64,000 bases of DNA from Nitrospirota bacterium. GTDB lineage: Bacteria > Nitrospirota > Thermodesulfovibrionia > Thermodesulfovibrionales > UBA1546. Numbering within the stretch: position 1 is the first letter of the stretch; each line of letters begins with the position of its first letter. The stretch spans positions 14,677 to 78,676 of the forward strand of contig WPIF01000006.1 in assembly GCA_009773185.1 (NCBI GenBank). The letters are read 5' to 3'. Shown here in pieces: positions 1 through 8,624 of this stretch. The notes beneath the pieces are model-generated. The model made no database searches. It was not told the origin of the DNA and saw only the letters and a program-made list of their open reading frames with translations. Position numbers and translations under genes: made by a program.

Positions 1-243
1 TTTTCGGAAATATTAAATGCAGTCAAATACAGCGGGAACCATTACACGGTCCTGCGCGGCAAAAAACCTATTGCCTTTATTAGCCCTGCTGAGGAACATG
101 TAAAGGAGAGAACACTGGGCGAGTTAAAGGGTTTACTGGCAAAACTTCCGCATCTCGGCGAGGAGGCAGACTATTTCGAGAAAGACTTAAAAAAGATTAT
201 AAAGCGTCAGCCACCTATGCCTGAGAAAAGCCGATGGGCGTAA
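1..243 (+). CDS. Phd/YefM-like antitoxin, 5'-truncated by the window edge
   Basis: Frame-1 ORF is open from nt 1 to TAA 241-243. Its stop overlaps the ATG (234) of the downstream PIN toxin, the classic antitoxin-toxin layout. Confidence 0.55.
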   Translation, partial: FSEILNAVKYSGNHYTVLRGKKPIAFISPAEEHVKERTLGELKGLLAKLPHLGEEADYFEKDLKKIIKRQPPMPEKSRWA

Positions 244-635
244 TATTCGATACCAGCGTTCTGATTGCCATAGAGCGCGGCTCATTCCGGATTGAAAAAC
301 TCGTAGAAGGCCGGGAAGGCGAAAAATTCGGGATTAGCGTGATAACAGTATCAGAGCTTTTGCATGGCGTGCACAGGGCTGATTCCGAGAAAAGAAGGTT
401 GAAGAGGGAAGCCTTTGTTGAAAAAATCATAGAGACTTTTCCCATATATAATTTTGATTTAAGCGCCGCAAGGATTTATGCAAGGGTTTGGGCAACACTT
501 GCAAAGAAAGGAATAAATATCGGGGCCCATGACCTCATTATTGCCGCCACTGCTGTTTCACTCGGTTTTTCAGTCGTGACATCTGACATGAGGGATTACA
601 GCAAGATCAAGGGGCTGAAGGTTGAAAATTTTTAA
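234..635 (+). CDS. vapC: VapC-type PIN-domain toxin
   Basis: 133 aa. N-terminal MGVIFDTSVLI (PIN acidic motif), internal DLIIAATA, C-terminal VVTSD. Overlaps the upstream antitoxin. Confidence 0.85.
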   Translation: MGVIFDTSVLIAIERGSFRIEKLVEGREGEKFGISVITVSELLHGVHRADSEKRRLKREAFVEKIIETFPIYNFDLSAARIYARVWATLAKKGINIGAHDLIIAATAVSLGFSVVTSDMRDYSKIKGLKVENF

Positions 636-739
636 AGGTTTTAGGAAATTATTGCGGCTTCCACCGGCAAAGACAAAGTCATCTGAAAGCCACTTGCAAT
701 ATCTGCCATTGTAGTGTATTGTAATACAGGAGGTGCTTT

Positions 740-958
740 ATGAGAACAGTATTGTCCGTCAGCCTGCCGGAAAACATGTCCGAGGAACTCGATAGATTCG
801 CAAAAACTACAGGACGCAACAAAAGCGACATCGTGAAGGAATCCCTGAGCATGTTTCTGTGGGAAACAAAGCTCAAGGCAGTTCAGAAAAGGCTCGGCCC
901 AAAGGCAAAAAAGCTGGGTATTGTCAGTGAAGAGGATGTTTTTAAAGCGATCTCATGA
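740..958 (+). CDS. CopG/RHH-family antitoxin (module 1)
   Basis: 72 aa. A beta-strand-like LSVSLPENMSEELDRFAK N-terminus is typical of ribbon-helix-helix. SD GGAGG lies upstream. ATGA overlap with the PIN gene at 955-958. Confidence 0.75.
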   Translation: MRTVLSVSLPENMSEELDRFAKTTGRNKSDIVKESLSMFLWETKLKAVQKRLGPKAKKLGIVSEEDVFKAIS

Positions 959-1356
959 TTGCCGTATTTGATACTAATGTACTTATTGCGGCAATCATCA
1001 CTGAGGGGGTTTGCTCGAAATTATTGCACAGGGCCCGCAGCCGGGAATTTTCGCTCGTCTCATGCCCGTTCATCATGACCGAAATCCGGCGCACCCTCTC
1101 AAAGAAATTTAGCCTTTCACATGATGAAACCGCCTCGGCAATAGAGCCAATCGGTGAGGCCATTGACCATATCCTTAGGCACAACATAAAAATTACGGAC
1201 ATCTGCCGGGATGCGGATGACGACAATGTTCTCGCCTGCGCCCTCGCAGCAAAGGCTACTTATCTTGTAACAGGAGATGCCGATCTGCTGGCGCTGAAAA
1301 ACTTTAGAGGCGTCAAAATCATCACTCCAAGGGACTTTGAGGCGTTGTTTGATTAA
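955..1356 (+). CDS. PIN-domain toxin (PIN_3-like, module 1)
   Basis: 133 aa. MIAVFDTNVLIAAI..., CRDADDDNVLACA, LVTGDADLL. Paralogue of 6672-7070. Confidence 0.8.
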   Translation: MIAVFDTNVLIAAIITEGVCSKLLHRARSREFSLVSCPFIMTEIRRTLSKKFSLSHDETASAIEPIGEAIDHILRHNIKITDICRDADDDNVLACALAAKATYLVTGDADLLALKNFRGVKIITPRDFEALFD

Positions 1357-1380
1357 CTCCTGATTGCCGCGCTTCGGCTC

Positions 1381-1536
1381 TTGCTAACTTTTTGCTTTCT
1401 GCCCTCCGCACTTTCGCGCTTCCGAACTATTGCACTATTGCGCTATGGACTACGGGACTATATGTAATTATGGAGGTTCAACCTCAATAGAATCTCATTG
1501 CACTTTTGACTTCTGCTCTATTGGCTTGCTCGCTGG
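1381..1536. repeat. Degenerate or fragmented copy of the inter-cassette repeat family (copy A)
   Basis: Shares word blocks with copies B and C in gene-relative orientation: CACTTTTGAC..CTGCTCTATTGGCTT, CTATTGCACTAT(T/G)G and TTGCTTTC. The order is rearranged or truncated. Confidence 0.5.
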
Positions 1537-1635
1537 ATTAAGAGATGAACATAAAGCCGCATGAGAAGTGGTGTGCGAATGTAGAAAATAGGATGTGTTG
1601 TACTAGCTCATTAATTCTCCTGATCATTTCTATCT

Positions 1636-1690
1636 AGTTCCCATATTGTGAACTTTTTTACTTGACAAACTATGGGAACTTACTTAAAAT
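1636..1690 (+). promoter_or_regulatory. Sigma-70-type promoter with operator palindrome for the higB operon
   Basis: TTGACA (1662-1667), 17 nt, TAAAAT (1685-1690). A perfect 10-bp inverted repeat AGTTCCCATA (1636-1645) / TATGGGAACT (1671-1680) brackets the -35. Confidence 0.55.
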
Positions 1691-1735
1691 GTCTAAAGAT
1701 GTTATTTATCCTTTATAAATTTTCATGGAGTCTTA

Positions 1736-2020
1736 ATGGTTCTTTTAGGCCGGGAAAAACTGGAGCAATTCACTCAGAAACATACGAATGCTCGTAATTG
1801 GATTCAAACGTGGCTTGCAGAGGTCGAAAATGTTAAGTGGCAAGAACCGCAAGACATTAAGAAGCGATATGCGAAGGCGAGTTTTTTAGCCGATAATGTT
1901 GTTATTTTTGATGTAAAAGGGTCTGCTTACAGGCTAGAGGTACAGGTGGCATATAACACAGGAAAAGTTATCGTGAAATGGGCAGGAACCCATGCAGAAT
2001 ATGACAAAAGGCATAAATGA
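1736..2020 (+). CDS. higB: HigB-family (RelE-fold) toxin
   Basis: 94 aa. The pattern ...W..P.D.K..Y..AS.L..N.V.F...G..YRL...V.Y......V.W.GTHAEYDK matches the HigB_toxin family as I remember it. Confidence 0.85.
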   Translation: MVLLGREKLEQFTQKHTNARNWIQTWLAEVENVKWQEPQDIKKRYAKASFLADNVVIFDVKGSAYRLEVQVAYNTGKVIVKWAGTHAEYDKRHK

Positions 2021-3237
2021 GGGGGAAGATGGAATCGAAAATTATTAATACCGAAGAAGATTATAGAAAATCACTTGAAGAAGTGGAACGCCTCATTGCA
2101 CATGATCCAAAACCCGGAACTCCAGAAGCGGCGCGCTTGGAACTTTTAGCAAAGTCATTGGCGATTTATGAAAAAGAGCATTTTCATTTTGAATTGCCTG
2201 ACCCTATAGAAGCAATCCGATTTAGAATGGAAGAGCAAGGATTGATGCAAAGAGATTTAGTTCCGTACATTGGTAGCAAAAGCAAAGTCTCTGAAATTCT
2301 ATCTCGCAAGCGCCCTCTCACTATCCAAATGATTCGCGCATTACATACTGGCTTAGGCATCCCGGCTGAAGTTTTATTGCAGGAGCCAAAAAAGATACAA
2401 CATGATAAATGCCAAGATATTGCTCTCGACTGGGAAAAATTTCCTATTGACGAAATAGTCAAGCGCGGCTGGATAAAGACTAGTGTTAAGAGTATTCGCA
2501 AACATGCGGCAGAACTCATGCAGGAGTTTCTTTCGCCTATAGGAGGAGAGTTCCCCGCGGGAGCACTATGTCGACGCAGCAAGAAGGAAATGGATATATA
2601 CGCGCTATTAGCTTGGACAGCCCGCGTGCTTATTCGCGCCGCCAAAGAATGTTGCTCGCAGGAGTATAAGCATAGCACTGTCACAAAGGAATTTATGCGG
2701 GAAGTAGCTCGCTTGAGCTGGTCTAACAGAGGACCGCTGCTTGCGCAGGAATTCTTGGCGAATCATGGCATTGCTTTGATTATCGAGCCACACTTAGCAA
2801 AGACAGCTATGGATGGTGGCGCCATGATGAGCCGTCGGGGGCCAGCCATTGGGTTAACACTTAGGTATGACCGCATTGACAGTTTTTGGTTTACTCTTAT
2901 CCACGAACTTGTACATGTAGCCAAACATCTTAAGGATGACGGCGATATTTATATTGATGATCTTGACTCGAAATTCGACGATCCAAATGAGATAGAAGCT
3001 GATTTATTGTCTGGCGATGTTTTAATACCCCAAAAAATATGGAAAACGAGCCGTGCCAATATTCAAAAGACAGACGACGCAATAAATGAACTTGCCAAAC
3101 AACTCGGCATACATCCAGCAATAGTCGCAGGCAAAATTCGGTATGAAAATAAAAATTATACAATACTTAATGATTTGGTTGGTCACAAACAAGTTAGAAA
3201 ACTATTTGCTACTACATCGGGGATAACAGATGTTTAA
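2017..3237 (+). CDS. HigA-type HTH antitoxin fused to an ImmA/IrrE (M78) metallopeptidase domain
   Basis: 406 aa. Residues 1-~125 look like a complete HigA (EDYRKSLEEVERL..., PDPIEAIRFRMEEQGLMQRDL..., IRALHTGLGIPAEVLLQ). The C-terminal half has FTLIHELVHV (HExxH, nt 2902-2916) and a downstream EIEAD. ATGA overlap with higB. An alternative start ATG 2029 sits behind a GAGGGGGA SD. Confidence 0.8.
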   Translation: MRGKMESKIINTEEDYRKSLEEVERLIAHDPKPGTPEAARLELLAKSLAIYEKEHFHFELPDPIEAIRFRMEEQGLMQRDLVPYIGSKSKVSEILSRKRPLTIQMIRALHTGLGIPAEVLLQEPKKIQHDKCQDIALDWEKFPIDEIVKRGWIKTSVKSIRKHAAELMQEFLSPIGGEFPAGALCRRSKKEMDIYALLAWTARVLIRAAKECCSQEYKHSTVTKEFMREVARLSWSNRGPLLAQEFLANHGIALIIEPHLAKTAMDGGAMMSRRGPAIGLTLRYDRIDSFWFTLIHELVHVAKHLKDDGDIYIDDLDSKFDDPNEIEADLLSGDVLIPQKIWKTSRANIQKTDDAINELAKQLGIHPAIVAGKIRYENKNYTILNDLVGHKQVRKLFATTSGITDV

Positions 3238-4315
3238 TCATTTACATTACGTGCCTATTCTGAAAAGTAAAAGGGCCGAATTTGTTGCCCTTGGACAGCT
3301 TGCAGCCGATATCAAAACCAAGTTGACGCCCATGATTGAGGTAATAACAGTCCCATGGGATTTTGCAAAGGACCTCCCTAGAAAAACTCTTAAATCCCAT
3401 ATTGATGGTGTAATCGAATATATTGCAAAATCATGGCCTAATGATTTGCCAATGTTTCTTGACCTGCTTTATGTTGCTTCGAGGAATGAGATTATTGCGG
3501 ACAAGCATTGTTTAATATATTGCTTCGAAGCTCTGCGCGTTTATAAACAGATGGTAATCCCTGTAACGAATATAGATCGAGATGAAAATTATCAAGAAGC
3601 TCTCAAGTCAATATTAAGAAAAGATAAAAGAGGCCTCTGTGTTCGAATACAACAAACTGATCTCGACGACTTGGATAATTTATCTAACGCCATCGACACC
3701 TTATTAGGCAAGTTCGATTTGGCACCCAACGATTGTGATATCGTCCTTGATTTTCAAGCACTCCCGCTTCAGGAAGTGAGTGATCCTGTCGCATATATTT
3801 CAAATATAATCAGAACATTTCCCAACATAAAAAAATGGCACAGCTTTACAGTAGCCGCATCAAACTTCCCCAAAATCCCTGCTATGGTAGCTAATTCTAC
3901 CAAACTAATTTCACGGGAAGAATTCATCATCTGGAATGAGATAATAAAAAATGGGAGGCTTCCGAAATTGCCTTCCTTTGGGGATTACGCCATTCAACAC
4001 CCTGATTTAGAAGATGTTGATTTTCGAACACGAAAGATTCCGGTGAGCTTAAGGTATGCTACACCGACTCAGTGGCTGGTTTACAAGGGTCGAGAGAAAA
4101 ATAAATTTGGACATGCACAATTCAATAAAATATGCAGTTCCTTAGTAAAAAGTAATGAATATTGTGGCGCAAGTTTCAGTGAAGGCGATAGCTATATAAG
4201 CCGCTGCGCAAAGAACTCTGACGGGCCAGGTAGGCCAGAAGAATGGAGACGCGCCGGTTTCAACCATCACATGACACTTGTTGTGAAACAACTCTCCAAT
4301 TTTGGCGAGCCTTAA
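3230..4315 (+). CDS. Phage 'Beta protein' family (PF14350-like / sce7725-like) protein
   Basis: 361 aa. The N-terminal HYVPILKSKRAEFVAL is the family's hallmark as I recall it. Has an 8-nt start/stop overlap with the upstream gene. Assignment is from memory, not from a search. Confidence 0.55.
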   Translation: MFNHLHYVPILKSKRAEFVALGQLAADIKTKLTPMIEVITVPWDFAKDLPRKTLKSHIDGVIEYIAKSWPNDLPMFLDLLYVASRNEIIADKHCLIYCFEALRVYKQMVIPVTNIDRDENYQEALKSILRKDKRGLCVRIQQTDLDDLDNLSNAIDTLLGKFDLAPNDCDIVLDFQALPLQEVSDPVAYISNIIRTFPNIKKWHSFTVAASNFPKIPAMVANSTKLISREEFIIWNEIIKNGRLPKLPSFGDYAIQHPDLEDVDFRTRKIPVSLRYATPTQWLVYKGREKNKFGHAQFNKICSSLVKSNEYCGASFSEGDSYISRCAKNSDGPGRPEEWRRAGFNHHMTLVVKQLSNFGEP

Positions 4316-4850
4316 TTCGGTCTCTAATCTCTTTTTTCAATTCGCGAATAGATATATTTTGAACAAGCCTGTTCCACAGAATATTTCGCGACCTATTTAT
4401 TAATCCCCTATGAAAGTTACGCTCTCTCAAAATGTCGAGCGTTTCATTCCGCCATAAAAGTTGAACTAATTCATTCGGATTTACTTTTTTGTTTTTTTTG
4501 CAAGGGCGTATCTTTACCAGTTTTATTTGTCCGTTAATACATTGAACTTCACTAATGCCCCACCATCGAGGAACGGATTGCTTAATTTTATAAAGGTGAC
4601 GAGTGCAGGTCACAACTGTGACATAATCCAAAACCTTATTGTAAATATCCTGCTGTCCAGAGAGCCTCTTTAAAGTGTCTTTTTCGCTCTTGATCTCATA
4701 TCCATGAATAGACCCATTAACTACAGCTACATCGACGCGCGCATTCCCTTGGCAAAGTCCCATTTCTTCTATGACAAGTGTATTCGAATCGCCGCCATAC
4801 TTCTGTCGAAGAGTATGAAGCAAAATGTTCCGAATATCTATATCTCGCAT
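4260..4850 (-). CDS. PD-(D/E)xK-like nuclease-fold protein, 'sce7726-family'-like
   Basis: Core EEMGLCQGNARVDVAVVNGSIHGYEIKSEKD (D...E-x-K), then RWWG and QLLWRNE motifs. I chose ATG 4850 (MRDIDIRN, AAGG SD) rather than the ORF-track start 4895, because a promoter-like element lies at 4886-4894. Confidence 0.55.
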   Translation of the reverse strand: MRDIDIRNILLHTLRQKYGGDSNTLVIEEMGLCQGNARVDVAVVNGSIHGYEIKSEKDTLKRLSGQQDIYNKVLDYVTVVTCTRHLYKIKQSVPRWWGISEVQCINGQIKLVKIRPCKKNKKVNPNELVQLLWRNETLDILRERNFHRGLINRSRNILWNRLVQNISIRELKKEIRDRIKARQNWRVVSQQVSCDG

Positions 4851-4885
4851 AAATACCTTATGCAACTTCTCATTGTACGGAATAA

Positions 4886-4894
4886 AGTATACCA
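4886..4894 (-). promoter_or_regulatory. Extended -10 (TGGTATACT) for the sce7726-like gene
   Basis: The minus strand reads TGGTATACT about 36 nt upstream of ATG 4850. Confidence 0.4.
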
Positions 4895-5084
4895 AATTCC
4901 AAATAAAAATAACTATTAGCCAATGTAAGGACAGTGACCGGTTTTTTCACTTAGATGTTCCAATCCCTCGACGACTCATTTCACGCAGGATTGCAGACTT
5001 CTACACGTACTCCGCAAACAATGCGATTTTCTATAGATGTTGACTTGATGGAGAAGTATGCAAAACCGCACAGTCACAATTAAT

Positions 5085-5103
5085 AATGAAGGACGGCTTC
5101 ATT
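5085..5103 (-). terminator. Hairpin immediately downstream of the 176-aa ORF
   Basis: AATGAAG-gacgg-CTTCATT, a 7-bp stem starting 5 nt after the stop. No clear U-tract on the minus strand. Confidence 0.3.
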
Positions 5104-5107
5104 TTGT

Positions 5108-5638
5108 TTAAGGTAATTTTGCACTCAAGCCAGAATTTGGGCCGCGCGGAACACCAAAGGCTGTATCAGTGCCAACATTAGCACGGAGGTCATTGAGCAA
5201 TGCCTGTGGACTGATTGCTGTCCCGATTTTGGCTTCAGACTCAGGGCTTGGATTACTGACGGGCTTTGCCCGGTAAATTATTAAACTCGATATATTGTCT
5301 CGGATTGCACGGAGACAAAGACCACGGAGGTAAAAGCGATTGAACTCACCTTCAGCAAGCATATCGGGAGCTTTTTCATTCATTTTTGCAGTGATTATTT
5401 TTCCTTTTACATTCCGTTCTTCAGTTGGATTGAATTTATTGCCTGAACGGAGTTGTGAGGTTAACCATGAATCATCATATTTTTCTGCTGCCTCTTTTAG
5501 TAATTGAGGATATTCTTGCTGTCCAATTACATTTAGTCTTTTGCTGGCGTGGAGTTTGCCAGTTTTAATGTCACCATTAATTTCCTCTAACATCAGTTCA
5601 CGAGTTGCACTGTCAAGATTCACAAGGCTGAATGCCAT
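5108..5638 (-). CDS. Hypothetical protein, no family recognised
   Basis: 176-aa ORF with an AAGGAGG SD. It is preceded by the repeat-borne extended -10 at 5711-5719. Confidence 0.5.
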   Translation of the reverse strand: MAFSLVNLDSATRELMLEEINGDIKTGKLHASKRLNVIGQQEYPQLLKEAAEKYDDSWLTSQLRSGNKFNPTEERNVKGKIITAKMNEKAPDMLAEGEFNRFYLRGLCLRAIRDNISSLIIYRAKPVSNPSPESEAKIGTAISPQALLNDLRANVGTDTAFGVPRGPNSGLSAKLP

Positions 5639-5700
5639 ATTGGCCTCCTTTTTGGGGGTTAATATTGGGTTATCTATTTACACACAACATTATCTTTATA

Positions 5701-5832
5701 TTGCTGCCGAATTATAACAAGACAGCTCGGAAGCAAGCAAGCGAGGAAGCCTAAACTGCGAGGGTTCAAGGGTTCAGCAAAAGCAACAGAGAATAAGCGC
5801 AAAAGTCAAAAGTGCCATAGTTCCATAGGGCG
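5701..5832. repeat. Inter-cassette repeat copy B (carries an outward TGTTATAAT on the minus strand)
   Basis: Collinear with copy C: ATTATAACAA, ~50 nt, AGGGTTCAAGGG, ~8 nt, AAGCAACAGAG, ~15 nt, CAAAAGTG. It lies directly 3' of vapC (5845) and 5' of ORF 5638. Confidence 0.75.
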
Positions 5833-5844
5833 ACGGTACACAAG

Positions 5845-6261
5845 TTATACAAAAGCAACTTTAAAGTCGAAAATATCCTTTATTGCCTGAAAATCTTTTT
5901 TGTTCTGGGTATAGACGACTGCGCCCATGCTTCTTGCTGAAGCTGCAATCAGGCAGTCATTTGTGATCGAGGCGGATTTTCTTATGTCGTATCCTTTGGC
6001 AGACTGGAGGCTGGAAATAATCTCGCCCGCCTTTTCATAATCTTTGACAGAGGGGGCGACGATTCTGTCAACGCGCCTGAAAAAATCAGAAAGCTCGTTG
6101 AATGCCCGCAAGGCTTCCTGTGTATGAACGCCTGCCCTGAGTTCCATAAGCACAACAGATGATAGATAGACTAAACCGTCTGACAGGAAAATTTCTTTAT
6201 GAAGGGAAGGGTTTGAGAAGCGGTCTATGAGGATGTTTGTGTCTACGAGCTTTTTAAGCAT
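5845..6261 (-). CDS. vapC: VapC-type PIN-domain toxin
   Basis: 138 aa. MLKKLVDTNILID..., ...NDCLIAASA... Has an 8-nt overlap with the upstream antitoxin. Confidence 0.85.
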   Translation of the reverse strand: MLKKLVDTNILIDRFSNPSLHKEIFLSDGLVYLSSVVLMELRAGVHTQEALRAFNELSDFFRRVDRIVAPSVKDYEKAGEIISSLQSAKGYDIRKSASITNDCLIAASARSMGAVVYTQNKKDFQAIKDIFDFKVAFV

Positions 6262-6451
6262 AGACCTTTTTTATCTTTGTCCCTCTGTGCTTTTCAAAAA
6301 TATTCTCAATCTCTATCTTGCCGCTTGCCATATCCAATGCCTTGTTTATTGCCTCTGCGTTGTCCTTTACCCTGAAAATTCTTTTAACGTTTTCGATGTC
6401 CCTCTTTTTAACTTCAAAGTGGTCTATTGTTATTACGTTTGCCTTTGACAT
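6254..6451 (-). CDS. VapB-like antitoxin
   Basis: 65 aa starting at ATG 6451 (MSKANV), 8 nt after a GGAGG SD. The ORF-track start 6469 would translate the SD itself. Overlaps the vapC start. Confidence 0.6.
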   Translation of the reverse strand: MSKANVITIDHFEVKKRDIENVKRIFRVKDNAEAINKALDMASGKIEIENIFEKHRGTKIKKVYA

Positions 6452-6537
6452 CTTAATCACCTCCTGCAAATTTAGCTCTTCAAATTAGTATATCAAAAAT
6501 AAGGTTCTTTTCTAACATTTCCCTCTCCCAAAACCTG

Positions 6538-6660
6538 CCAGCATTATAACAACCACAAGTGCCATAGTGCAATAGAGCATAAAGAAAGGGTTCGAGGAGT
6601 CGAGGGTTCAAGGGGTCTAGTGAAAGCAACAGAGCACATCAAAAGCTCAAAAGTGTCCGC
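6538..6660. repeat. Inter-cassette repeat copy C (carries an outward TGTTATAAT on the minus strand)
   Basis: See copy B. It sits between the PIN gene end (6672) and the vapB start (6451). The extended -10 is at 6543-6551. Confidence 0.75.
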
Positions 6661-6671
6661 AAACGAGGAAT

Positions 6672-7070
6672 CTATCCTTTCAGCCTGCTCCAGAACTCTC
6701 TTGGGGTAACAATATCTATACCCTTGTATTTCTTTAAAACAAGAAGGTCCTCGTCCCCGGTTATGATAAATTCGGCATTGCCGCTCAATGCCGTCCCGAT
6801 TATTATGTTGTCATCCTTATCCCTGCATGGCGAGTCAGCAAGCTCACGAGGTTTAACCCTTTCAGCCTCATCTCTTAAATATCCGATGATATCCTTCACG
6901 ACACTCTCCGGAAGGCGCACTTTTTTTGTCAGGTTTATTTTTACTTCCGACAGGATATGTTCACTTATTACAATGCTGTGGCCTGAAAGGCAGACCTCAA
7001 AGACCTCGGAACAAAGTCCCCTTGCAGCAAATGCCGCGATAATGACATTGGAATCAAGAACAACCCTCAT
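6672..7070 (-). CDS. PIN-domain toxin (PIN_3-like, module 2)
   Basis: 132 aa. MRVVLDSNVIIAAF..., CRDKDDNIIIGTA, IITGDEDLL, IVTPREF. Paralogue of 955-1356. Confidence 0.8.
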   Translation of the reverse strand: MRVVLDSNVIIAAFAARGLCSEVFEVCLSGHSIVISEHILSEVKINLTKKVRLPESVVKDIIGYLRDEAERVKPRELADSPCRDKDDNIIIGTALSGNAEFIITGDEDLLVLKKYKGIDIVTPREFWSRLKG

Positions 7071-7285
7071 GAAATTGCTTTGAAAATATCCTCATCAGTA
7101 ATCAGGCCCTCTGCCTCGGCAAAAGGAAGGACCTTTTTCCTCAATTGCTGGAAACGCTTGACAGCAACATAACGGGCAATGGCATCTCTGATTATCTCGC
7201 TTTTAGAGGTCTTTTCTCTTTTAACAACAGTATTGAGTTCCTTTTGAAGCTTTTCAGGCAGTCTTATTGTTATTGTATCCTTCAT
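7067..7285 (-). CDS. CopG/RHH-family antitoxin (module 2)
   Basis: 72 aa starting at ATG 7285 (MKDTITIRLPEK), 7 nt after AAGGAGG. The C-terminus ITDEDIFKAIS parallels IVSEEDVFKAIS of module 1. ATGA overlap with the PIN gene. Confidence 0.75.
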   Translation of the reverse strand: MKDTITIRLPEKLQKELNTVVKREKTSKSEIIRDAIARYVAVKRFQQLRKKVLPFAEAEGLITDEDIFKAIS

Positions 7286-7352
7286 CGGAGAACCTCCTTG
7301 TTTGTAAGACAATGTAACACAAAATGAAATTGGTTGTCAAGTAACCACTTAG

Positions 7353-8624
7353 TCAAAACAATCTTGCCTGTCCTTTTATCTTTTTTCTCTCCACCTCTTC
7401 AAATATCTTTATCTTTCCGTATTCGCCGTCAAAGCCCGGTGCGATGTGGACTTTGCCTTGCCTCATCCTCGATATTGCCTCTGCGATTTGAGGGTTGCCG
7501 GCTTTTTCGCTATCCTCTATTGGAGTGTCCATCAATATTTTGAATTCATTGCCAAGTTTTTCGAGAAGATTAAAATATTCTTTTTGAACAGCCTTGCTGT
7601 TTACTCCTACCTTCAGAGTCTCTGAGATAATTTCCTGAAGTGGAATTGCGGAATAAAAAACAGGAGCATCTTTGGGCCTGAAACCGTCTTTTCTGTCAGC
7701 AAGCTTTGCTACCCTGTGCATGACTCCGATAGTTACCTTTTTCCCGCAGACAGGGCAGAGGTAATTATTTTTTATCGTCTCTTCAGGCGACAGGCTTACC
7801 TCGCATGTCCTGTGGCCGTCATAGTGATATTTGCCTTCCTCAGGAAAGAATTCTATTGTGCCGGTGAAGCCGCCTTTCTTTTTAATTGCATCAGTTATTG
7901 ACGCATACGATATCTCGGTATCAAGTATATTTGCCTCCCTTCCAATCTTTGGAGGTGAATGGGCATCAGAGTGCGATGTAAGAGTAATCCGGTCGAGTTG
8001 CGAAAGCCTCCAGTTCATTTTCGGGTCAGATGAAAGTCCTGTCTCTATCGCGTAGATATTAGGCGTCAATTCCTCAAAACATTCTTCAAGGGAATCAAAG
8101 CCTGAGGCAGCACCGAATACAGAGAAATGGGGTGTCCATGCATGTGCAGGAATGAGCATTGTCTTATCAGATGCATCGAGGACTATCCTGAGGAGCTTCT
8201 TTGCATCAAGCCCGAGGATTGGCCTTCCGTCTGCTGAAAGATTCCCTATCTTTGAAAGCCTGGCGTTAATCTTTCCCGCAACAGTAAGGTCAGGCGCCAG
8301 AAGAATGCTGTGTATCTTTCTCACTCTGCCATTTTTGCTGTAGATACAGCTTATCTCTGCAGTGAGCATGAAATACATGTCGGAGATGCATGAGACAGGG
8401 ATATCATCATTCCTGTATTTTTTTTTGAGTTTGAATAAACCATTCCCGCAGTCTTCCAGTTTTTCCTTTAACTCACTGAGCCATTCCGGATGCGTAAAAT
8501 CACCTGTCCCGATAACCTTTATCCCTTTTAACTGCGACCATTTCCAGAGATTTTCAGGGGTCATGTCAGGGCTTGTTGCGCGGGAATATTTCGAGTGCAT
8601 GTGAAGGTCTGCGATAAATCTCAT
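7353..8624 (-). CDS. Endonuclease Q-like PHP-domain nuclease
   Basis: 423 aa. The N-terminal ADLHMHSKYSRATS...VIGTGDFTHPEW fits a PHP fold. A Zn-ribbon CPVCGKKVTIGVMHRV is present. Length and layout match EndoQ as I recall it. Confidence 0.6.
   Translation of the reverse strand: MRFIADLHMHSKYSRATSPDMTPENLWKWSQLKGIKVIGTGDFTHPEWLSELKEKLEDCGNGLFKLKKKYRNDDIPVSCISDMYFMLTAEISCIYSKNGRVRKIHSILLAPDLTVAGKINARLSKIGNLSADGRPILGLDAKKLLRIVLDASDKTMLIPAHAWTPHFSVFGAASGFDSLEECFEELTPNIYAIETGLSSDPKMNWRLSQLDRITLTSHSDAHSPPKIGREANILDTEISYASITDAIKKKGGFTGTIEFFPEEGKYHYDGHRTCEVSLSPEETIKNNYLCPVCGKKVTIGVMHRVAKLADRKDGFRPKDAPVFYSAIPLQEIISETLKVGVNSKAVQKEYFNLLEKLGNEFKILMDTPIEDSEKAGNPQIAEAISRMRQGKVHIAPGFDGEYGKIKIFEEVERKKIKGQARLF

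Follow-up and report, generated by a model that had tools for sequence, protein, structure and literature searches.

The first 7.3 kb of the 64,000-nt stretch of Nitrospirota DNA analysed here (contig WPIF01000006.1; "the window" denotes the whole stretch) are dense in toxin–antitoxin (TA) genes, and our data indicate that this region is probably a small TA/defence island in Thermodesulfovibrionales (Nitrospirota), made up of separately acquired cassettes that fill a variable hotspot of the chromosome between endoQ and a nupC-like gene. The extent of the island was established with a second record of the locus, L001 (from the 167-kb contig ENA ERZ27284381 k139_818614), which matches the window without a single mismatch across 10,635 nt and adds the left flank: from a Phd-like gene outward there follow a 171-nt spacer, a nupC-like transporter gene in divergent orientation, an unknown gene, scpB, a gene of the LysM/NlpC-P60 type and moeA. 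On the right, the gene at 7353-8624 had been named endoQ in an earlier reading of the same sequence (hereafter the original prediction), and this name is borne out by a match to the P. furiosus EndoQ structures (E 1e-51); 594 EndoQ relatives were found in genome contigs, and they assign the organism to Nitrospirota, order Thermodesulfovibrionales. The TA-dense stretch is exactly the endoQ-nupC gap, ~7.5 kb with 14 genes, and 12 of these belong to TA pairs or to a unit related to PD-lambda-2 and cII. An above-threshold family-model match was obtained for 10 of the 12 TA/defence genes, the Phd-like and VapB-like antitoxins being placed by position and size. The island genes form two convergent blocks, which meet at a 56-nt overlap between a Beta gene and a cII-like gene, and both RHH-PIN_3 modules of the island therefore face each other. 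The island is an ordinary TA/defence hotspot of a known kind, with nothing to surprise a specialist; it adds one documented hotspot of this type (endoQ/nupC) for an uncultured Nitrospirota lineage.

The hotspot is seen most directly in what relatives carry at the same place. All island and flank proteins were compared by tblastn with 170 endoQ-centred loci from genome and metagenome collections, and endoQ stands beside nupC in only two of the 170, L006 and L007. In L006 (EndoQ 82% and NupC 86% identity), the endoQ-nupC gap measures 411 nt, with one 129-aa open reading frame (ORF) and no TA or defence genes. In L007 (EndoQ 80%, NupC 84%), the gap is 5.5 kb long (1630-7122) and its cargo, unrelated to that of the window, comprises a PIN-like/UPF0175 pair, a TIR protein of the CAP12/Pycsar type, a CxxCxxCC protein and a restriction-modification system made up of an EcoRII-C-like gene and an N6/N4 DNA methylase. 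Across three genomes, two of them comparators, conserved flanks are thus combined with different cargo or none, and the gap cargo is enriched in defence and TA functions. Because the gaps of L006 and L007 are near-empty or hold other cargo, the segment beside endoQ is accessory, as the original prediction had proposed, and the region as a whole is not invariant across relatives. The accompanying proposal that the two RHH-PIN modules mark its borders did not stand, since a Phd-VapC pair lies outside them; in flank alignments, similarity is lost at the stop codon of endoQ and returns 65-110 nt before nupC begins, and these two points are the true island borders. The order endoQ-scpB-nlpC-moeA is retained in L124 (EndoQ 63%), and the backbone is therefore old. 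A check of composition, which the original prediction had suggested, also sets the island apart: its GC content is normal (0.422 vs 0.427 +/- 0.009), and its tetranucleotide distance (0.188 vs 0.127 +/- 0.015) ranks first among 57 sliding window segments.

Two details of the comparator gaps may be recorded in passing. The 129-aa ORF of L006 (11292-11681) ends 3 nt before the nupC start codon, spans the conserved nupC upstream region and nearly fills the gap; its identification as a radical-SAM fragment was dropped, as it has no Pfam match. The reading frame of the L007 methylase seems to be split into ORFs of 263 and 59 aa.

Several points weigh against a hotspot filled by separate acquisitions. 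Just two comparator genomes retain the endoQ-nupC adjacency, and a scan of JGI metagenomes yielded no additional endoQ-nupC neighbours (best full-length EndoQ 76% identical, one partial match 84%). The closest EndoQ relatives (84-85%: L003, L004, L005 and L105) are without synteny or lie on contigs that end too soon, and the comparators are all metagenome-assembled genomes or metagenome contigs. Seven contigs that carry an identical EndoQ seem to stem from one clone, with the same neighbouring genes and with 100% identity in the four stretches compared as DNA, and they are therefore silent on within-species polymorphism. The tetranucleotide deviation could stem partly from short genes and long spacers rather than from foreign origin. 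Finally, a common motif 3' of three different PIN genes, described below, is left unexplained by purely independent acquisition.

Defence islands and variable hotspots between conserved core genes have been described for many bacteria. The endoQ-nupC island resembles known hotspots in its conserved flanks, in the wholly different cargo among relatives, in the clustering of TA and defence genes and in its compositional deviation, and differs from them in its uncultured Thermodesulfovibrionales host, in occupying a plain intergenic gap without a phage or satellite backbone and in being documented in three genomes (for hotspot examples, see PMC9122126 and PMC11723918). The same deviant tetranucleotide signature would also fit the decayed remnant of a single integrated mobile element (prophage, satellite, or integrative and conjugative element) that brought in all cassettes together. 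Such an origin would be in keeping with the phage-associated families present, namely the beta and cII families of satellite P4 together with phrog_9159, phrog_984 and phrog_30545, and with an E. coli plasmid record in which a pair of beta and sce7726 genes (sce7726 being the family of the cII-like gene) is flanked by genes annotated as phage functions. However, no integrase, transposase or tRNA gene occurs within 20 kb of the island, flanking direct repeats and structural or replication genes are likewise absent from it, and no DNA match was found among 50,697 phage or 72,556 plasmid records. Moreover, the closest relatives of the cassettes sit in differing genomic contexts, and piecemeal rather than single acquisition is therefore favoured; we regard a single-element origin as unlikely.

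In the preferred interpretation, a hotspot with separately acquired cargo, the gap would have gathered six self-contained cassettes, each on its own: Phd-like/VapC, RHH/PIN_3 module A, the PD-lambda-2-like genes with the cII-like gene, a lone 176-aa gene, VapB-like/VapC, and RHH/PIN_3 module B. An ORF listing confirmed the coordinates, lengths and ATGA overlaps given in the original prediction, and its family calls were upheld by matches to Pfam, NCBIfam and PADLOC models, among them VapC/PIN, RHH_1, PIN_3, HigB_toxin and Peptidase_M78. The features, in window positions, are as follows.

1..243 (+): Phd/YefM-like antitoxin gene, the 3' 80 codons of a 93-aa gene shown in full by L001 (Pfam Phd_YefM E 8e-4, below the cut-off)
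234..635 (+): VapC-type PIN toxin VapC1, 133 aa (Pfam PIN 1.8e-15; NCBIfam VapC models 8e-24, below equivalog cut-offs)
740..958 (+): RHH antitoxin of module A, 72 aa (Pfam RHH_1 3e-7; ATGA overlap with the toxin gene)
955..1356 (+): PIN_3/TIGR00305 toxin of module A (PIN3_A), 133 aa (PIN_3 2.6e-17; TIGR00305 6e-17)
1357..1530 (+): R1, pyrimidine-rich junction stretch with CTATTGCACTAT... and CACTTTTGACTTCTGCTCTATTG, recognized by shared motifs
1662..1690 (+): putative sigma-70-like promoter TTGACA-17-TAAAAT before the PD-lambda-2-like operon (consensus match at 11/12 positions)
1736..2020 (+): HigB-like protein, homologue of PD-Lambda-2 component A, 94 aa (Pfam HigB_toxin 9e-24; PADLOC PD-Lambda-2_A 2e-41)
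2017..3237 (+): fusion of Xre-HTH and M78 (ImmA/IrrE) peptidase, homologue of PD-Lambda-2 component B, 402-406 aa (PADLOC PD-Lambda-2_B 3e-156, full length; Pfam Peptidase_M78 4e-8)
3230..4315 (+): Beta protein (P4 beta family), homologue of PD-Lambda-2 component C, 361 aa (Pfam Beta_protein 2e-73; PADLOC PD-Lambda-2_C 9e-58)
4260..4850 (-): sce7726/phage P4 cII-like protein, 196 aa, ORF to 4895 (NCBIfam sce7726_fam 6e-54; PADLOC 'cll' 3e-33; precomputed Pfam PF26915 Phage_P4_cII)
5108..5638 (-): hyp176, stand-alone 176-aa protein (phrog_30545 2e-36)
5700..5844 (-): R2, pyrimidine-rich junction stretch directly 3' of VapC2, recognized by shared motifs
5845..6261 (-): VapC-type PIN toxin VapC2, 138 aa (Pfam PIN 7e-13)
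6254..6451 (-): putative VapB-type antitoxin, 65 aa, ORF to 6469 (size, position, 8-nt overlap with the VapC2 start)
6520..6671 (-): R3, pyrimidine-rich junction stretch directly 3' of the module B toxin gene, recognized by shared motifs
6672..7070 (-): PIN_3/TIGR00305 toxin of module B (PIN3_B), 132 aa (PIN_3 2.5e-15; TIGR00305 1.6e-18)
7067..7285 (-): RHH antitoxin of module B, 72 aa from the ATG at 7285 (Pfam RHH_1 4e-9)
7340-7311 (-): promoter-like site TTGACA-18-TACATT before the RHH gene of module B, from a promoter scan
7353..8624 (-): EndoQ, the conserved right-hand flank; variability begins right after its stop codon

The two RHH-PIN_3 modules were at the centre of the original prediction, which took them for clear paralogues that face each other and enclose the other cassettes. 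Each of them has the make-up of an RHH-PIN TA pair, with PIN_3, TIGR00305 and RHH_1 matches above the cut-offs, conserved acidic residues and an upstream antitoxin gene that overlaps the toxin gene by ATGA, and their convergent orientation (A on the plus strand, B on the minus strand) was confirmed. Both antitoxins are 72 aa long, and their ends, ...EEDVFKAIS and ...DEDIFKAIS, had been read correctly; the toxin motifs IITPRDF and IVTPREF, which had been given as terminal, lie 5-6 residues before the C-termini. However, paralogy was overstated. The PIN proteins share 33-34% identity, the RHH proteins 29% and the module DNA ~48%, and a family-level similarity of ~30% is no ground for assuming that two genes of one genome are paralogues. 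Each toxin has far closer relatives elsewhere: at least 120 clusters (at 90% identity) lie at 72-92% identity to PIN3_A and at least 120 at 64-100% identity to PIN3_B, compared with 29-38% across the two clades. In a neighbour-joining tree of 123 sequences, A and B fall into two clean clades, so that the modules are not each other's closest relatives.

The genomic contexts of these relatives point in the same direction. The closest relatives with usable context (89-92%) are solitary modules at other chromosomal loci, those of the A type (L090 and L173) beside a two-component (response-regulator)/ABC cluster and ADH genes and those of the B type (L083-L089 and L174-L176) directly after nadC. 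Antitoxin and toxin co-vary as a unit (RHH 94-96% with PIN 89-90%): RHH relatives of 94-96% identity accompany A-type PINs, and 94% identical ones accompany B-type PINs. Because identity within each clade is far above that between clades and solitary relatives occur elsewhere, we propose that each module belongs to its own subfamily of one TA family, that the two subfamilies are old and separate, and that the modules arrived independently. As type II modules of the VapBC-like PIN_3 (PF13470)/TIGR00305 plus RHH kind, they are typical in their ATGA overlap, their PIN proteins of ~133 aa, their acidic residues and their co-variation, D6, E43, D89, D108 and D110 of the PIN domain being invariant in 15 sequences spanning both clades; they differ from such modules in forming two subfamilies with a common antitoxin C-terminal motif. 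This tail, G-[IL]-[IV]-[ST]-[ED]-E-D-[VI]-F-K-x-I-S, is shared despite 29% overall identity and presumably represents the toxin-binding segment, and cross-neutralisation between modules A and B is conceivable. No solved structure of the PIN3_A or PIN3_B subfamily was detectable by sequence.

An alternative in which the modules are diverged paralogues of an old duplication, and in which this inverted pair delimits an accessory and possibly mobile or invertible segment (1357-6671), draws on their common family, their matching lengths, the common antitoxin motif and the convergent arrangement, as well as on the fact that no further PIN_3 toxin relative turned up in the remaining 56.7 kb of the window or in ~2.1 Mb around endoQ at 170 other loci. 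However, besides the two-clade tree and the solitary occurrence of close relatives at unrelated loci, the DNA itself speaks against it. A repeat search and pairwise DNA alignment revealed no inverted repeat linking the modules, the longest inverted match (30 nt at 70%) lying outside them; with module DNA at ~48% identity, there is therefore no substrate for homologous inversion. In addition, one cassette is not enclosed by the modules: Phd-VapC (1-635), whose antitoxin gene starts 38 nt before the window, lies inside the variable gap and outside the supposed bracket. No genome was found with both modules around a different interior. We consider this alternative extremely improbable; inverted TA modules of the same family are no evidence for a bounded or invertible element, and the RHH-PIN_3 modules are without a structural role in delimiting or moving the island. 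Their co-location in the island is real and reflects the usual clustering of TA genes in islands. Convergence is one arrangement out of four that are possible, and has no statistical weight.

The best characterized cassette of the separately filled island lies between the modules. The original prediction treated HigB-HigA::M78 as a TA pair apart from an adjacent "candidate system"; this separation did not hold, because the pair together with the Beta protein gives PD-Lambda-2 A, B and C. The genes at 1736-4315 match the PADLOC PD-Lambda-2 A, B and C models at 2e-41, 3e-156 and 9e-58, are co-directional and overlap by 4 and 8 nt, so that the three components of PD-lambda-2 are present in one predicted operon. 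In the E. coli PD-lambda-2 system, the Xre-peptidase B is toxic, the HigB-like A neutralises it and defence depends on the P4-beta-like C (Vassallo et al. 2022, PMC9519451), and the unit described here would be expected to act in the same way, with a toxic B, a neutralising A and a C that is needed for defence. It agrees with PD-lambda-2 in its gene order (HigB-like A, Xre-M78 B, P4-beta-like C), in the common direction of the three genes and in their overlaps; it differs in its Nitrospirota rather than E. coli host, in a fourth, convergent cII-like (sce7726) gene that overlaps the 3' end of C, and in being known here from sequence. A PD-lambda-2-like system with a convergent cII-like fourth gene is thereby extended well outside Enterobacteria.

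The cII-like gene gives this cassette a second affinity, as beta and cII are partners in the gop-beta-cII defence locus of P4 (PMC9122126; bioRxiv 10.1101/2023.04.06.535777). The island resembles that locus of the satellite phage in having beta-family and cII-family neighbours. It differs in three respects: a PADLOC scan of nine island proteins revealed no gop homologue, the cII-like gene runs towards the Beta gene, and the Beta protein is nearer to PD-Lambda-2_C (9e-58) than to the 'beta' model of gop-beta-cII (6e-7), the cII-like protein itself matching at 3e-33. Convergent beta/sce7726 pairs with overlapping 3' ends also occur on plasmids of S. terangae (L183), E. coli (L184) and Rhodococcus (L185), with overlaps of 35-47 nt as compared with 56 nt here. 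The full four-gene layout is present on the Sinorhizobium terangae plasmid, where an unnamed gene of 132 aa takes the place of A, and plasmid relatives of A and B are often without C. These observations suggest that the Beta and sce7726/cII-like genes form what looks like a conserved two-gene unit, joined to HigB-like and Xre-M78 genes or standing alone, and the conserved antisense overlap of the two genes might be regulatory. Taken as a whole, HigB-HigA::M78 and the former candidate system are one unit of known type with a recurrent fourth gene.

Three pyrimidine-rich stretches, R1 at 1357-1530 (+), R2 at 5700-5844 (-) and R3 at 6520-6671 (-), directly follow the 3' ends of three unrelated PIN toxin genes and are oriented alike relative to them, with a pyrimidine fraction of 0.64-0.69 and a C/G ratio of 1.3-1.5. 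They share the motifs CACTTTTGA(C/G)yTyTG, CTATTGCACTATGGCACTT and GAACCCTTGAACCCTCG, which occur three times each in the window, all in the island, where 0.02-0.1 would be expected; the order of the motifs is partly shuffled among the copies. Homology to the relatives of module A stops ~25 nt past the stop codon, and R1 therefore lies outside module A. A similar motif follows a 90%-identical relative of PIN3_B at the nadC locus (L083, 8416-8454), a related one lies in L007 at 1629-1670, 14 nt past the endoQ stop and at the island edge, and only one further match was found in 2.2 Mb. No Rfam family match was obtained for these spacers, and a scan of 1-7400 against Rfam gave no match at E <= 1; the motif is absent from the viral contigs scanned.

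Vibrio superintegrons are chromosomal integron cassette arrays rich in TA modules. The dense, small and self-contained cassettes, the several TA pairs and the short repeats at some junctions of the island are reminiscent of integron arrays, and recurrence of the motif next to three PIN genes, at the nadC-locus relative and at the L007 island edge would be consistent with a recombination site, the array having been assembled through site-specific capture of cassettes, either in an integron-like manner or with an unknown recombinase. However, cassettes of the island lie on both strands, no integrase or recombinase gene occurs within 20 kb and no integrase/recombinase Pfam match was obtained in the 20.4-kb locus L001 or the 21-kb locus L186, from both of which IntI is absent. 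No attC-like sites were found, and in single-stranded folding the junction stretches perform no better than shuffled sequences (z +0.6, +0.9, -0.2 and +0.9), so that the repeats are without attC-like hairpins. The motif order is shuffled, and the pattern was derived from the same instances that it finds, with L007 as the sole independent match. Moreover, a pyrimidine-rich composition with C above G fits a plain 3' untranslated region or a Rho-type terminator equally well. We thus hold site-specific capture to be very unlikely. Equally doubtful is the bolder proposal that the motif set CACTTTTGAC...GCTCTATTG, CTATTGCACTATGG and GAACCCTTGAACCC is the footprint of an undescribed capture mechanism, whether site-specific or template-switch, that would deliver cassettes with TA and defence genes to hotspots on Thermodesulfovibrionales chromosomes in the absence of a linked integrase. 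For the spacers themselves, a role as 3' untranslated region or Rho-type terminator and an origin as a cassette-junction footprint are both possible.

Within a hotspot filled cassette by cassette, the TA pairs would be expected, from their families, to work in the usual manner: a labile antitoxin of the RHH or Phd type would bind its own promoter and the PIN RNase toxin, and loss of the antitoxin would free the RNase and lead to growth arrest, so that the locus is stabilised or phage infection is aborted. The ATGA overlap of stop and start codon would fit a translational coupling of the TA genes. Two further pairs of this kind, Phd-VapC and VapBC, had been named in the original prediction; their PIN toxins were matched by family models, whereas the antitoxin calls rest on position and size (1-243, E 8e-4; 6254-6469, no family match). 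The 93-aa Phd-like gene begins 38 nt to the left of the window and overlaps the start of VapC1 in L001; it would be the first island cassette, although its assignment as an antitoxin is mostly positional. In L009, a relative of Phd-VapC1 (67%/83%) occupies the opposite flank of endoQ. The putative VapB-type antitoxin at 6254-6451 is assigned from its size, position and overlap, with no family match in Pfam or NCBIfam.

The lone 176-aa gene, hyp176, has no Pfam, NCBIfam or PADLOC match and belongs to phrog_30545, a family with 981 representative clusters and without an annotated function. Its AlphaFold (AF2) model has a pLDDT of 92.6 and no fold match in the PDB, and a weak similarity to phage minor-capsid/head-morphogenesis proteins was seen in BFVD. 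In Geobacter, hyp176 has transposases among its neighbours, together with a trypsin-like protease and an unknown gene of 266 aa. Between bipA and moeA, at 2208-2692 of L001 and ~7 kb to the left of the window start, a ParE toxin gene is preceded by a gene for 59 aa, and the two make up a further TA pair; the TA genes of this genome are therefore not confined to the endoQ-nupC gap.

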